Of a DNA stretch of 64,000 nucleotides, positions 6,323-36,588 are shown in pieces; positions within the stretch are counted from its first letter, which is position 1, and every line of letters begins with the position of its first letter. This DNA comes from Dehalococcoidia bacterium (GTDB lineage: Bacteria; Chloroflexota; Dehalococcoidia; Lucifugimonadales; UBA3495). The notes under the pieces are model-generated. The model was not told where the DNA came from. It made no database searches and was given only the letters and a program-made list of their open reading frames with translations. A program made the position numbers and the translations under genes. The DNA lies in NCBI GenBank assembly GCA_034423215.1, contig DAOUIY010000067.1, positions 52,265-116,264 on the forward strand, in the 5' to 3' direction.

Positions 6323-7381
6323 CTAATTGTTCTTGGACTGGGCGAATATGATGCGGCCGGCGGCGGTCTGCAAGACCCGCGTTACGGTTACGTCGTGGAA
6401 GGCGTTGATGTAGCGCTTTCCGCCCTCGACCACCACCATGGTACCGTCATCCAGGTAGGCCACGCCCTGGCCCAGTTCCTTCCCTTCCTGGACGATGTTG
6501 ACCCGCATTTCCTCGCCCGGCAGGACGATGGACTTGAGGGCGTTGGCCAGTTCGTTGACGTTGAGGACCTGGACTCCCTGGAACTCGGCCACCCGGTTAA
6601 GGTTGTAGTCGGTGGTCAGGATGGGGCACTTCATGGAACGGGCCATCTGCACCAGCATGGAGTCAACCTCATCGCCGTTGCTGATGCCAACATCCATGAT
6701 GTCCAGGGTTATGCTGTCGTCGCGGCGGAGGCGTCCCAGCACTTCCAGTCCCCGGCGTCCCCGGTTGCGGCGCAGCGGGTCGCTGGAGTCGGCGATGTGG
6801 CGGAGTTCGTCGAGGATGAACCGGGGGACCACCAGGGTTCCCTCCAGGAAGCCGGTGCCGGTGAGGTCCGCTATGCGGCCGTCAATTATGACGCTGGTAT
6901 CAACGAGAATATTGCCATTGCGTCCCTCTTTCACCAGCCCGTTGGTGGGAGCGGCGCTCTCCAGGGAGGGGAATACGGCCTGCACGTCCTTGCCCCGCAT
7001 CCCGCCCAGCAGCAGGCCAACCATGCCCAGGGTCAGGCTGACCATTATCGGTATGCCCCAGCCCATCCAGCCGTTGATGTTATAGAAAGGAATGGATATC
7101 AGGGCCGCAAAAACCAGCCCAATCAGCGCGCCAAATGCGGCGGACAAAAGCGTTGAACCCGGAACGGCGTTGACGTAGCTGACGAGGTTTCGCCAGGGTC
7201 GAAGAAAAATGTAAGGAGTTACCAACGCGCCTACCGGAATCCCGACGAGAGCCAGAACTATGCCCCAGGGGATAATCTGCCTTCCGTCCGAAGGCAGGTC
7301 CGGTACATAGGGCCCCAGGCGCCAACCCAGGACGCCGAGCCCTCCGGCCCCAATGATTCGTAGAGTCCATACATCAAACAC
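6323..7381 (-). CDS. Membrane PIN/TRAM-domain protein (YacL-like)
   Basis: N-terminal TMs, LVDTSVIIDGRI, ELRHIADSSD..RRNRGRRGL, GVAYLDDGTMVVVE, QTAAGRIIFA; conserved position upstream of ispD. Confidence 0.92.
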   Translation of the reverse strand: MFDVWTLRIIGAGGLGVLGWRLGPYVPDLPSDGRQIIPWGIVLALVGIPVGALVTPYIFLRPWRNLVSYVNAVPGSTLLSAAFGALIGLVFAALISIPFYNINGWMGWGIPIMVSLTLGMVGLLLGGMRGKDVQAVFPSLESAAPTNGLVKEGRNGNILVDTSVIIDGRIADLTGTGFLEGTLVVPRFILDELRHIADSSDPLRRNRGRRGLEVLGRLRRDDSITLDIMDVGISNGDEVDSMLVQMARSMKCPILTTDYNLNRVAEFQGVQVLNVNELANALKSIVLPGEEMRVNIVQEGKELGQGVAYLDDGTMVVVEGGKRYINAFHDVTVTRVLQTAAGRIIFAQSKNN

Positions 7382-7945
7382 GAAAATCTACTCCCTTTCC
7401 AACGTGCGCCTCCCTCGGCCTGACCTGTTCATATTTCGAGTCTAATGTATCCTGTAAACTCCCCTCACCCTCCCCTGCAATTCAACAGGAAAAACAACAG
7501 TTCAGATGCCGTAGGGGCAAACGCCGGAGAAATAAATATTGAATATCGTGCAACCGTCCCGCCGCCGCCGCGATACTAAGTTAAGAAAGGACGTGGGCGC
7601 AGCCAGGAACAGGCAGCCGGCCCTATTTAGACGTACTTGGGCCGGCGTGAGCATAACATAAAGCATCAGCTTTAGGAAGATTTATCGCCTTGAATGGGAA
7701 ACATCCGGGCATTTGGTGGGAATATTCAGCCTTGACAAATGCCGTGAGCGGCATATTTCGACGGAAAATGGGACTATCAGCGCGGAACGGCAACGTGTTC
7801 AGGCGTCAACGCGCCGGAATGGATTGAACCGCCTAAAATGCCTCGAAACGGCGTGCCGAGGTAAGGCCTGCCCTGCGGATGTTGAGCAGGCCGCACTGCT
7901 CAGCAACCTAGCGGCTCAAATTACTCGAACTGATGGATAATGTTT

Positions 7946-8008
7946 CCGCTCACCCTGAGCTTGTCGAAGGGCCGCCCCCTCATGCTTCGACAGCCTCACC
8001 ACCAGCGG
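7946..8008. repeat. REP/MITE-like element, family B (CTGAGCTTGTCGAAG...CTTCGACAGCCTCA)
   Basis: Imperfect inverted repeat, same arms as 11043-11112, 43013-43075, 62429-62507. Confidence 0.7.
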
Positions 8009-8052
8009 ACTTCCGATTTGCCCACCGTTTCTCGGGTGCATCGTCAAATTCA

Positions 8053-8121
8053 CCGTAGTTCCCGCCTTTGCAGGAATCTCGACTACAGCCAGTCAAGGTT
8101 ACCGCCTTCGCAGGAACGACG
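8053..8121. repeat. REP/MITE-like element, family A (degenerate)
   Basis: GTAGTTCCCGCCTTTGCAGGAATC...CCGCCTTCGCAGGAACGACG followed by AAATGGGAC as at 32193. Confidence 0.7.
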
Positions 8122-8303
8122 AAATGGGACGTTCGCAAGCTTCAACTTTCAAGTTGGCGACGGGCCCCAGGGCGATGGACCACCGGATTTCATTCGGTGT
8201 CGGGTGGTTACGCAGGAATAATTCGCAAAATGAGACCGGCGGATTCGGTTCACTCCGCCGGTCTTGAAATGGGACGTGCCCTTTTGCCAAGGCAGTCAGG
8301 TTG

Positions 8304-8753
8304 TCAGTGGTGCGCCCCGGAGAAAATCTCCGCGGTTACGCTGGTGCTGGGGGTCGCCACGGCGACCGAACCATAGAGGGGTCAACGCCGCTTCCACTGG
8401 TCCACCAGGTACTGTCCCTGGTCGTCATCCAGCCCCCAGATCTGGAAGTGGACTTTTATGTCGTCATAAACGCTGACCGTGCCTTCGTCGGCAATAGAAG
8501 CCCGGTCGGGGTCCCGGTAGGCTTCGACACTAACGTCCATCCAGTTGACAGGAATTTCCTCGCCGCTGGCTATGCGCTCCACCATGTTAACGGCGCAAGC
8601 GGTAATGCCGGACAGGAAAAGTTCGCCGGCGCCAACCTCCTCGCCGCCGGAGCCGTCGGCCACCCAGTGGTGATTGCGAGTGTTGCAGATGGCACGCCCC
8701 GGGGTGCCGGTGCTGTAGCTGTGTACCCGATAAGCCAGGGTTAGTTCCGCCAT
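8304..8753 (-). CDS. OsmC/Ohr-family peroxidase, predicted selenoprotein (Sec at in-frame TGA 8382-8384, residue 124 of 149)
   Basis: First Cys motif LSGITACAVNM. Reading through TGA gives WKRR-U-PLYGSVAVATPSTSVTAEIF, restoring the second C-P motif and the final strand of the OsmC fold. Stem-loop right after the TGA. Confidence 0.8.
8352..8367 (-). promoter_or_regulatory. Putative bacterial SECIS hairpin of the OsmC gene
   Basis: mRNA GGUCGC-CGUG-GCGACC at +15..+30 after UGA; perfect 6 bp stem, GU in loop. Confidence 0.7.
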
Positions 8754-9109
8754 TTCTTCAACCTCCTTTTTCTCGTCCTTGCCGCTGATGGCTAATATTA
8801 GGGAACAATGCCAGGCAAAAGCAACCCCCTTCCGTCCAGGGAGGTTGCACTATAAACTGGTCGCAACTCGCGCAAGGCCCTCAGGTGGAAATGAATGTCG
8901 CCCTGAGCTTGCAGAGGGTTCAACATGACATTTTTCCACAATGCAATCGCAATGCCCTTTCGCCGAAACCGGATTCGTGACCTGGGCAGGCTCTCTTCAG
9001 GCTCCCTTGCTTCCTCCTTTCGGCTCTATCGCAGCTTCCTTGTGGTATATTTACGAACCGGAACCCATATCTGATATGGCGTCACTATCCCCCTTGCGGA
9101 GGACAAGAC

Positions 9110-10129
9110 ATGAAGCTGGTCACCTATAACACCGGAACCGGACCTCGCTGCGGCGTGCTGCAGGATGATTCGGTAATTGACGTAACCGCCCTGGTGGGCT
9201 GGTCCCAACCGCTGCGCGACGTGCAGGCCCTGCTGGAGACGGGCGACGATGCGCTGGAACGGGTACGCGCCGCCCTGCAGGACGGCAACTCCTCTGCGCC
9301 CGTTTTTGCCCTGGAAGACGTTCAACTCCAGTCCCCCATCCTGCGGCCGCCAACCATCCGGGACTTCATGATTTTCGAGGAGCACGCTACCCAGCAGGGC
9401 ACCCGCGAACGGGAAGAGGCCTGGTACCGGATGCCAATTTTCTATTTCTCCAACCCGCTTTGCGTTTACGGCCCCGGGGACACCGTGCCGCATCCCTCGG
9501 CCTCAAACATGCTGGACTATGAGCTGGAGATTGGCTGCGTAATCGGCAAAGAGGGTACCAACGTATCCGAAGCGGACGCGCTGGACTACATAGCGGGCTT
9601 CCTCATCTTCAACGACTGGAGCGCGCGCGACTTGCAGCGGGACGAGAGCGCGGTGGGCCTGGGCCCCGCCAAGGGCAAGGACGGCGCATCCTCCCTGGGC
9701 CCCTGCCTGGTAACCACCGACGAACTGGCCCCACTCATCCGCGACGGTCGCCTGCACGTCAAATGCACCGGGCGGGTCAACGGGGTCCCCTGGGTGGAGG
9801 ACAGCGACGGCAGCCTGTCATACCATACCTGGGGCGCCATGGTGGAGCGGGCCGCCAAGGACAGCCGCATCGCGGTGGGCGACGTGCTGGGCTGCGGCAC
9901 CGTGGGCGGCGGTTCCATCGGCGAGGCCATCCGCAAGGGCTACGAAGCTCGCTGGCTTCAGCCCGGCGATGTGGTGGAATTCGAGGTTGAAGGGCTCGGC
10001 ACCCTTAGCAACACCGTGGGCCCCAAGGTGAACGAAGACCCCGGCTACCGCTACGGGGTTGGCATCGAAATCGAGGCGCCCGTCCCCGGCGTGGCTACCG
10101 GCTACGTTTACGAATTGAAACCGCGTTAA
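9110..10129 (+). CDS. Fumarylacetoacetate hydrolase family protein
   Basis: IRDFMIFEEH, LDYELEIG, NDWSARDLQ, AKGKD, GDVLGCGT, LQPGDVVE. Confidence 0.92.
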   Translation: MKLVTYNTGTGPRCGVLQDDSVIDVTALVGWSQPLRDVQALLETGDDALERVRAALQDGNSSAPVFALEDVQLQSPILRPPTIRDFMIFEEHATQQGTREREEAWYRMPIFYFSNPLCVYGPGDTVPHPSASNMLDYELEIGCVIGKEGTNVSEADALDYIAGFLIFNDWSARDLQRDESAVGLGPAKGKDGASSLGPCLVTTDELAPLIRDGRLHVKCTGRVNGVPWVEDSDGSLSYHTWGAMVERAAKDSRIAVGDVLGCGTVGGGSIGEAIRKGYEARWLQPGDVVEFEVEGLGTLSNTVGPKVNEDPGYRYGVGIEIEAPVPGVATGYVYELKPR

Positions 10130-10219: not shown

Positions 10220-10882
10220 ATGCCAAACAAGAAGGGCACCGGGTTGTTGATGGTATGGGCCGACGTGCCAGCGGACAAGGAGGAAGACTTCAACGCCTGG
10301 TACAACGAGGAACACATACCGGAGTTGCTGGCTATCCCCGGCATACTTAACGCCGCCCGCTACGAGGCGGTGAAGAGCGGGCCCAAGCATCTGGCCTGCT
10401 ACGAACTGGAGAGCCCGGCGGTGGTGGAGTCCGACGCTTTCAAGAACCGCCCGCCGCGCTCGGAGTGGGCCAATCGGGCCTCAGGGCCGGCCATTGCCAC
10501 CACCCTGATCAGCAATGTTTACCAGATGATCCACCCCACCGAGTTGACGGCTGAAATAGCCGGCAGCGACATGGCGCCGGCTCTGCAGATTGGCCGCATG
10601 GACGTGGCGCCTGCAAACGACGAAGAGTGGAACCAATGGTACAGCGGCATCTACGTGCCCAACTACGAAAAAGTGGCCGGGGTCATCCGGGGCCGCCGGT
10701 ACAAGTCCGTCAGGGGCACGCCCATGTACGCCACGGTCTATGAATTCGAGCACGAGTTGGTATCGGAAAGCGATGAGTGGGCGCGGCAGCGGGACATAGA
10801 TCCTTCCACCGAGCGCATTCGGCCCATGATGACCCACGCCACGGGTTCACCGGGGGTTTGGAAGAAGACCTTCCAGGTTTAG
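10220..10882 (+). CDS. Tandem dimeric alpha-beta-barrel (DUF4286/EthD-like) protein
   Basis: Two repeats: EEDFNAWYNEEHIPELLAIPG..AARY and DEEWNQWYSGIYVPNYEKVAG..GRRY. Confidence 0.7.
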   Translation: MPNKKGTGLLMVWADVPADKEEDFNAWYNEEHIPELLAIPGILNAARYEAVKSGPKHLACYELESPAVVESDAFKNRPPRSEWANRASGPAIATTLISNVYQMIHPTELTAEIAGSDMAPALQIGRMDVAPANDEEWNQWYSGIYVPNYEKVAGVIRGRRYKSVRGTPMYATVYEFEHELVSESDEWARQRDIDPSTERIRPMMTHATGSPGVWKKTFQV

Positions 10883-36417: not shown

Positions 36418-36588
36418 GCGCGCGCTCCGTTTACGGGCGCTCCATACCCGGCCCGGTTTGGCGGTAATTGTAGCACGTTGCCGGGGCAACTTTGACCTTG
36501 ACGCCCGGTTTTGACCTCGTGCTAGTATGAACTCTCACTTCAAACCCTTTCCGGCGACCATAGCCTGACGGCAGGAGTTGGCCCACCC

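Follow-up and report, generated by a model that had tools for sequence, protein, structure and literature searches.

The closest described relatives of the gene studied here are the Ohr/OsmC thiol peroxidases and a single catalogued OsmC-like selenoprotein. In the Ohr of Xylella fastidiosa, Cys61 is the peroxidatic residue, activated by Arg19 and Glu51, and Cys125 is the resolving one, the two forming a direct disulfide that is reduced by lipoylated proteins (PMC5962072). The OsmC superfamily also includes subfamilies of unknown activity, for instance YhfA (PMC5962072). In the selenoprotein catalogues the sole OsmC entry is the 'OsmC-like protein, UxxT', represented by three Sargasso, five Global Ocean Sampling (GOS) and three Olavius-symbiont sequences, and the supplement of Zhang, Fomenko and Gladyshev (2005) prints AACY01145085 with the segments VAGIGF-U-LLTQLKRY and, further on, AKQG-C-FAENLV, where U is selenocysteine (Sec). 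Here we describe an OsmC-type gene located at 8304..8753 (- strand) of a 64,000-nucleotide stretch of DNA from a Dehalococcoidia bacterium (contig DAOUIY010000067.1; the whole stretch is called the window below), in which an in-frame TGA codon falls at the second active-site position. Read in its most novel sense, the gene would represent an uncatalogued selenoprotein subfamily with the OsmC/Ohr fold, belonging to marine and sponge-associated SAR202/Dehalococcoidia, with Sec at the resolving position and a short selenocysteine insertion sequence (SECIS) that dictates a VAVAT peptide; to this reading taken as a whole we give a probability of roughly 0.4.

An OsmC gene with an in-frame TGA codon

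Gene callers report the N-terminal 123 codons of this gene, from the ATG at 8753..8751 to ...QWKRR (8385..8753, -), where a TGA is met (8382..8384, -). The frame runs on for 25 more codons, PLYGSVAVATPSTSVTAEIFSGAHH (8307..8381, -), to a second TGA (8304..8306, -) that we take as the true stop codon and that in the orthologues is TAG, TAA or TGA. The complete selenoprotein open reading frame (ORF) would comprise 149 codons, with UGA-Sec at codon 124, plus the terminal stop, and the residues of the read-through product add up accordingly (123 + 1 + 25 = 149). An earlier inspection of the letters alone (the sequence-only reading) had already described an ORF ending at QWKRR-TGA whose frame continues for 25 codons to the TGA at 8306..8304, and our reading of the sequence agrees with it.

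The first active-site Cys, C53, is encoded by the TGC at 8597..8595 (-) within ...SGITACAVNM.... In a profile alignment to solved Ohr structures E44 falls on the catalytic Glu (NPEQLF), C53 on the first Cys (GYAAC) and the TGA column on the second, resolving-position Cys (HQVCPY), so that the earlier claim that the TGA sits at the second catalytic Cys, in the CP motif of Ohr/OsmC, is borne out. The short form of the protein scores 30.0 bits against the Pfam OsmC domain (PF02566, cut-off 27.5), covering profile positions 4-79 of 100, and the read-through form 41.3 bits, covering positions 5-94 with residues 39-133. The Pfam match lengthens on read-through, and the tail is therefore the counterpart, by homology, of the C-terminal stretch of the OsmC domain that the short form lacks. 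A structure model was obtained for a Cys-containing homologue (P0010) that is 67% identical to the window protein, with a predicted local distance difference test (pLDDT) of 78 and a predicted template modelling score (pTM) of 0.77. The model has the OsmC/Ohr fold, and its best ~40 Foldseek matches in the PDB are all OsmC/Ohr proteins (probability ~1.0, template modelling score 0.45-0.6). Past the Cys/Sec column it contains a helix (121-129) and a strand (133-140) with block-mean pLDDT of ~89-95, and in the window protein these two elements, the last helix and the final beta-strand, would come from the 25 read-through codons.

Conservation of the TGA column and of the extension

A search of 5.8 billion proteins retrieved homologues of two length classes, one of 145-152 amino acids, alignable with the read-through product over its whole length and reading ...WKRR-C-PLYGSV(A/V)TAT..., and one of 119 or 123 amino acids, all ending in ...WKxR. 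Among the 120 best protein clusters, 90 end at column 124 and 29 have a Cys there. We also scanned species-representative genomes, where 281 relatives were found; the best 80 of them were fetched, all Dehalococcoidia, SAR202 or Chloroflexota metagenome-assembled genomes and many coming from sponges or the open ocean. The codon at column 124 is TGA in every one of the 81 orthologues (these 80 plus the window), and all 81 continue in frame as P(L/I)YG(S/T)VAVATP... for 24-31 codons. Two divergent truncated members belonging to other 50%-identity clusters likewise have the TGA, followed by PMYGTVAVAT or PLYGSVAVAT and then by the same hairpin (see below). The check proposed with the sequence-only reading, to align homologues at this column, thus returned either Cys or TGA and never a conserved end elsewhere.

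To survey the wider family, a profile built from the Cys forms was run against 1.84 billion cluster representatives; the family proved small, with 383 clusters at E <= 1e-3. Within the top 150 representatives 47 end exactly at column 124 and 55 read through it, 51 of these with Cys; the other 48 are fragments or unclassifiable. About 47 of the 102 classifiable representatives in this top 150 would thus be of the TGA type. At the first Cys column (C53), 128 of 130 census representatives have a Cys. It had been claimed that standard annotation truncates the gene, and NCBI indeed holds 119-amino-acid entries named 'OsmC family protein'.

The terminal stop among the 81 orthologues is TAG in 44, TGA in 19 and TAA in 18, and a preference among stop codons therefore does not account for the invariant internal TGA. 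For the three codon positions of the extension the variability amounts to 0.076, 0.079 and 0.349, to be compared with 0.146, 0.088 and 0.302 in the 20 codons upstream of the TGA and with 0.67, 0.66 and 0.64 after the terminal stop. Because variability is 3-periodic in the extension and no longer so past the real stop, the extension is, judging from this pattern, under purifying selection at the protein level. A sequencing error or a pseudogene was rejected, the same TGA being found in 81 independent assemblies.

The annotation of 119- or 123-residue proteins by gene callers and NCBI, together with the lack of any visible Sec machinery in the window, would suit a TGA that is a real stop giving a 123-residue product, with the downstream conservation due to an RNA element (a terminator or a regulator). 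We find this hardly credible. The tail matches the C-terminus of the Cys homologues residue for residue, variation of the third-position type extends over 24-31 codons, well past the hairpin, and the codon is TGA in 81 of 81 cases whereas the next stop uses all three codons. Furthermore, according to the model, truncation would cost the protein a helix and the last strand along with its second active-site residue, and the Pfam score goes up on read-through.

The SECIS hairpin

The published criteria for bacterial SECIS (bSECIS) elements (PMC13188914, consensus of Zhang and Gladyshev) are a stem of 4-16 bp, a loop of 3-9 nt, a distance from UGA to loop of 16-37 nt and a folding energy of -7.5 kcal/mol or lower. 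In the loop a G is required in the first two positions, usually followed by G or U, with flanking bases that pair (PMC13188914). Downstream of the TGA of the window gene, at +15..+30, there is a hairpin GGTCGC-CGTG-GCGACC (8352..8367, -), with a perfect 6-bp stem and the 4-nt loop CGUG (8361..8358), at the very place (8367..8352) where the sequence-only reading had put a perfect 6-bp hairpin. It agrees with the consensus on every count: stem of 6 bp, loop of 4 nt with G at position 2 and then U, spacing of 20 nt and -10.2 kcal/mol. The earlier call of a SECIS-type hairpin is in line with this, and the proposed 149-residue Sec-containing product is supported by the column equivalence, the selection on the extension and the SECIS criteria alike.

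The hairpin was aligned in 67 distinct 48-nt sequences starting from the TGA, in which columns 18-24 face columns 27-33 as seven pairs. All of the 469 cells (100%) are paired. Three pairs vary, namely 18-33 (GC 62, CG 4, GU 1), 21-30 (CG 49, UA 18) and 24-27 (CG 49, AU 10, GC 8), and they do so by compensatory substitution only, always at third codon positions, that is, at synonymous sites. Double changes occupy 40 cells against 8.8 expected, a number reached by none of 500 shuffles, and when the partner columns are slid along the alignment pairing falls to 29-80% and the covariation is nearly gone. The apical G25 and U26 are invariant, and loop positions 1 and 4 co-vary.

The Cys forms look different at this place. 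Three distinct homologues with a Cys codon (TGT or TGC; six loci) have 2-3 of the 7 pairs broken and lack the GU apex. The TGA forms invariably read VAVAT while 27 of the 29 Cys forms differ, mostly reading VATAT. VAVAT would be fixed in the TGA forms because the Val codon GUN supplies the apical G-U of the SECIS.

Exchange between Sec and Cys forms

Most of the Cys forms (24 of 29) make up one clade, and P0010, P0017/P0021, P0056 and P0062 are each nearest to TGA forms. This placement of several Cys forms beside TGA forms indicates repeated switching between Sec and Cys. P0010 (L087:560-700, on a single 1.5-kb metagenome contig) has TGC at the column, one nucleotide away from TGA, and both the hairpin GGTCGCCGTGGCGACC and VAVAT are fully intact. 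It looks like an apparently recent one-nucleotide change from Sec to Cys, or possibly a population variant.

Decoding of the UGA and selenoprotein machinery in the lineage

Putting together the column, the extension and the hairpin, we consider it very probable that the OsmC gene is genuinely decoded with Sec. By the known bacterial mechanism, the UGA at codon 124 would not be read as a stop during translation; the mRNA hairpin 15-30 nt downstream, with its G-U apex, would recruit SelB carrying Sec-tRNA(Sec), Sec would be inserted, and translation would then proceed through 25 more codons, those of the C-terminal helix and strand. A variant code in which UGA means Trp or Gly was rejected, TGA being an ordinary stop for 18 of the 56 long ORFs in the window (G+C 61%), including clear genes with a G+C content at third positions (GC3) near 0.8, as well as the end of the OsmC gene itself and of 19 of the 81 orthologues. 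When the whole window was scanned for TGA codons with a hairpin and coding-like flanks, only the site in the OsmC gene emerged; another in-frame TGA, at 36537..36535, was rejected since the part upstream of it is not protein-like.

Neither a tRNA (by ARAGORN) nor any Rfam family was found in the 64-kb window. ARAGORN found no tRNA-Sec in 60 loci of relatives (L001-L060), which gave three ordinary tRNAs only, and tblastn found no selD in the window or in 86 loci, with an E. coli SelD sequence as a rough probe. The machinery can nevertheless be traced through a syntenic relative (L003, MPMM01000002.1), whose OsmC gene is 89% identical to the window read-through protein and has the TGA, the same hairpin and a syntenic neighbourhood. 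This contig is part of the genome that Slaby et al. 2017 describe as 'bin22, Chloroflexi; SAR202 clade, MPMM00000000', and Table S4 of that work gives for bin22 two SelA (COG1921), one SelB (COG3276) and one SelD (COG0709). All three Sel proteins are present in the remaining four SAR202 bins too (Slaby et al. 2017). The supplementary tables of Peng et al. 2016 record SelD, SelA and SelB for Dehalogenimonas as well as for many further Chloroflexi, and the main text of that paper makes no mention of OsmC, BtuF or Chloroflexi. The Sec machinery is therefore documented for a syntenic relative carrying the same TGA gene, not for the window's own genome.

Of the 80 related loci, 33 have a second TGA gene at a distance of 2.5-3 kb from the OsmC gene (L020, L022, L024, L026, L027, L029, L040, L043-L046, L048-L051, L053, L054, L058, L060, L061, L065-L068, L070-L074, L076 and L078-L080), the codon being TGA in 33 of 33. 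An example is L066:7761-8699 (+), with the TGA at 8049. The TGA stands in the context ...AIC-E-V-U-A(I/V)SS..., a CxxU motif, and is followed at +16 by the hairpin CUCGGC-AGGUN-GCCGAG. The predicted product is a BtuF-like protein of ~310 amino acids, apparently cytoplasmic, in which one Peripla_BP_2 domain (residues 9-265, 74.7 bits) spans the TGA, and for which no NCBIfam model reaches its cut-off. It matches the entry 'Cobalamin-binding protein BtuF, CxxU' (cd01144) of a 2026 catalogue and has its own G-containing apical loop. The gene is absent from the window and its fold is unrelated to that of the OsmC protein; judged by its sequence, its sole bearing on the present case is that it speaks independently for Sec decoding in the lineage.

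Some bacteria reportedly carry tRNA(Sec)-like tRNAs with Cys identity, and the UGA might be recoded through SECIS and SelB with Cys, delivered by a Cys-charged tRNA of this kind, as the residue inserted. Cys is evidently tolerated at column 124, Cys forms being common and P0010 having TGC with an intact hairpin. We consider this very improbable, since the SAR202 bins of the lineage of this gene family have SelA and SelD besides SelB, and SelA and SelD are needed only for making Sec. We know of no tRNA(Sec)-like tRNA with Cys identity in the SAR202/Dehalococcoidia lineage.

Active site and possible chemistry

The invariant residues of the N-terminal part include R20, C23 and E44, beside the first active-site Cys, C53. 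C23 (codon 23, 8685-8687, -, in G-R-A-I-C-N-A-R) never varies within the close subfamily, be it in TGA or in Cys forms, but is present in only 44 of 116 broader representatives; it lies beside R20 in a loop modelled with low confidence (model residues 21-40), which may correspond to the mobile Arg loop of Ohr.

The OsmC selenoprotein probably acts as a hydroperoxide reductase, and the most likely cycle would be Ohr-like. C53 (or the selenolate itself) would reduce the hydroperoxide, C53 being placed on the central helix together with E44, which in Ohr helps to activate the peroxidatic Cys, and with the invariant R20 in a flexible N-terminal loop. Sec124, at the 'resolving' position, would then form an intramolecular selenenylsulfide with C53, to be reduced by a thiol or dithiol partner such as a lipoylated protein or one of the thioredoxin type. 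That Sec serves as the resolving and not as the primary peroxide-attacking residue is, in our judgement, an even bet.

The roles could instead be swapped in the same selenoprotein, with Sec124 attacking the peroxide to form a selenenic acid and C53 resolving it, a possibility that we regard as real if somewhat doubtful. At physiological pH selenols are for the most part deprotonated, and they are stronger nucleophiles than thiols; most selenoproteins of the peroxidase type use Sec to react with the peroxide. In the published OsmC-like selenoprotein, too, Sec is at the peroxidatic position. The direct Cys-Cys disulfide of Ohr (PMC5962072) means that either residue could reach the substrate. Two features of the first site speak against such a swap, neither of them decisive: the E44 and helix context that activates the first Cys in Ohr stays invariant around C53, and C53 is almost never replaced (128/130).

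Another alternative, which we think unlikely, is that of a genuine selenoprotein that is not a peroxidase but, for example, handles protein disulfides or persulfides, binds metal or selenium, or senses the redox state. The remoteness from Ohr/OsmC (12.9 bits on TIGR03561 against a cut-off of 88.85), the third Cys, C23, invariant in the close subfamily, the window neighbours of the gene, which are not redox genes, and the existence of OsmC subfamilies of unknown activity such as YhfA would fit with it, but the Glu-Cys...Cys arrangement of Ohr is kept, and some members adjoin genes for glutaredoxin, DsbA, rhodanese, rubrerythrin or LplA, although the latter evidence is anecdotal.

As for these neighbourhoods, a divergent member of the TGA type (L094:1-1575; GCA_009391275.1, VEXF01000007.1) sits between rubrerythrin/VIT1 and lipoate-protein ligase (LplA-B) genes, the LplA-B neighbour being suggestive because lipoylated proteins recycle Ohr enzymes. 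Cys forms are found next to glutaredoxin and glyoxalase genes (L083) or to rhodanese, DsbA and Usp genes (L085).

Coming back to the main reading, a Sec-decoded OsmC protein with Ohr-like chemistry, several observations weigh against it. The similarity to characterised OsmC/Ohr proteins is weak (E ~1e-3 in the PDB, 12-24% identity), which makes hydroperoxide reductase activity an extrapolation. The catalytic Arg is not aligned to that of Ohr, the invariant R20 adjoining the low-confidence segment of the model (residues 21-40). No selA, selB, selC or selD was found in the window, in the 10 kb further to the right on the 215-kb metagenome scaffold to which the window corresponds (ENA ERZ23495173, NGUY21-1 scaffold_182) or in the fetched flanks of the relatives. 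Finally, set against shuffles, the 66-nt stretch has an ordinary folding energy for its G+C content (z = 0.58), and the support for the hairpin is therefore evolutionary, by covariation, and not thermodynamic.

Gene layout, neighbourhood and other family members

Upstream of the gene, the ribosome-binding site AGGAGG (8762..8767, -) stands 8 nt 5' of the ATG and is invariant in 21 of 21 aligned upstream regions. A promoter-like pair (8795..8824, -) may be formed by the -35-like TTGCTT (8824..8819) and the -10 TAATAT (8800..8795), separated by an 18-nt spacer. In the alignment of the window with 20 relatives the only conserved blocks are GGTTGC (-35-like), TAATAT (-10) and AGGAGG; the promoter consensus scan missed the GGTTGC...TAATAT pair, the -35 being weak. 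The scan had also proposed a 'terminator-like' site in the 5' leader (8843..8825), rejected as it is not conserved in relatives and overlaps the conserved promoter-like block. Beyond the second stop there is a putative terminator-like hairpin (8227..8264, -) with an 11-bp stem, AGACCGGCGGA/TCCGCCGGTCT, and a 10-nt loop, followed by CATTTTG; the terminator scan passed over this hairpin (8264..8227) on account of its loop limit of 8 nt. With promoter-like blocks upstream and this 11-bp hairpin with CATTTTG downstream, the OsmC gene looks monocistronic.

In the window the gene is flanked by a PIN/TRAM gene (7381..6323) and, on the other side, by an FAA-hydrolase gene transcribed divergently from it (9110..10129) and a DUF4286-like gene (10220..10882). 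Nucleotide similarity to the syntenic relatives stops at 8300-8326, near the true stop codon. In the spacer of ~900 nt between the OsmC and PIN/TRAM genes (7400-8300) there are neither repeats nor a convincing ORF, and Rfam gives no match at E <= 1. The syntenic relatives have only ~400 nt there, none of it in common save for an 84-nt match elsewhere in L013. An identical OsmC protein is encoded on two contigs, yet this spacer differs by 29 nt between them.

Long proteins (370-714 amino acids) with one or two stretches matching the subfamily profile were also found and would be fusions or tandem domains (P0135, P0158, P0159, P0174, P0199, P0201, P0207, P0208, P0218, P0222, P0244 and P0256). 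At L081:3614-6234 and in L082 a Cys-form OsmC gene adjoins genes for ZorA-like, OmpA-like and EH_Signature proteins, in a 5.3-Mb genome and with neighbours that have PSCyt/DUF1501 domains; this neighbourhood looks like a Zorya-type anti-phage defence locus.

Implications and comparison with known systems

SAR202 is an abundant deep-ocean and sponge-symbiont lineage. Selenium spent on an enzyme of the Ohr type, next to a further selenoprotein gene in the vicinity, would add to what is known of its oxidative chemistry and of its need for trace elements. If Sec indeed resolves, selenium would speed resolution and recycling (formation and reduction of the Se-S bond, and protection of the peroxidatic Cys from over-oxidation) and not the first attack on the peroxide. 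The natural Sec/Cys pairs at the resolving position, including the TGC variant with an intact SECIS, offer a system for probing the role of selenium away from the primary nucleophile. On the practical side, hundreds of public Dehalococcoidia/SAR202 gene models are cut at codon 119-124 and no curated model rescues them; a dedicated hidden Markov model with a Sec column would mend them.

Compared with the Ohr/OsmC thiol peroxidases, the window protein has the same fold, with the first Cys on the central helix after a conserved Glu and the second position in a C-P motif starting the penultimate helix. It differs from Ohr in its low identity (12-24%), its score on TIGR03561 (12.9 bits, below the cut-off of 88.85), the Sec at the resolving position and the subfamily-specific third Cys, C23.

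With the OsmC-like UxxT selenoprotein it shares the PF02566 fold, two active-site Cys/Sec positions, SECIS-dependent UGA recoding of the bacterial type and a marine origin. The published protein has Sec at the first Cys position and an ordinary Cys at the second, whereas the window protein has C-A-V-N at the first and Sec at the second (U-P-L-Y). On the NCBIfam model NF041052, 'OsmC-related (seleno)protein' (cut-off 95), the published Sargasso sequence scores 157.4 bits, the window protein 27.2 and ten divergent members of its family 45.9 at most. The program hhalign pairs the published Sec with C53, although the match is weak (E = 0.05), and point mutants of the window protein probed on NF041052 gave -7.9 bits for C53A, +2.7 for N56T (which creates C-x-x-T at the first site) and 0.0 for Y127T (at the second site). 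The sequence-only reading was right that OsmC-like selenoproteins had already been reported, but the reported family has its Sec at the first Cys and does not include the window gene. Failing NF041052 and having a Sec site other than the published U-L-L-T, the window gene is, as far as profiles and alignments tell, a separate OsmC-fold subfamily that no curated model covers and whose Sec occupies the other of the two active-site positions.

As in the canonical bacterial SECIS (E. coli fdhF type), the stem-loop lies in the coding region directly 3' of the UGA, with G then U at the apex and flanking loop bases that can pair. In contrast to it, the window hairpin is short, with no evident lower stem or bulged U, and GUCGCC-GUG-GCGAC is nearly fixed even among members less than 50% identical in protein, forcing the VAVAT peptide. 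UGA recoding and OsmC-like selenoproteins were already known, and in this respect the family is an extension of known principles and no new kind of system. What is new is a distinct subfamily with Sec at the resolving-position Cys, one that is common among SAR202/Dehalococcoidia although public annotation systematically cuts it short.

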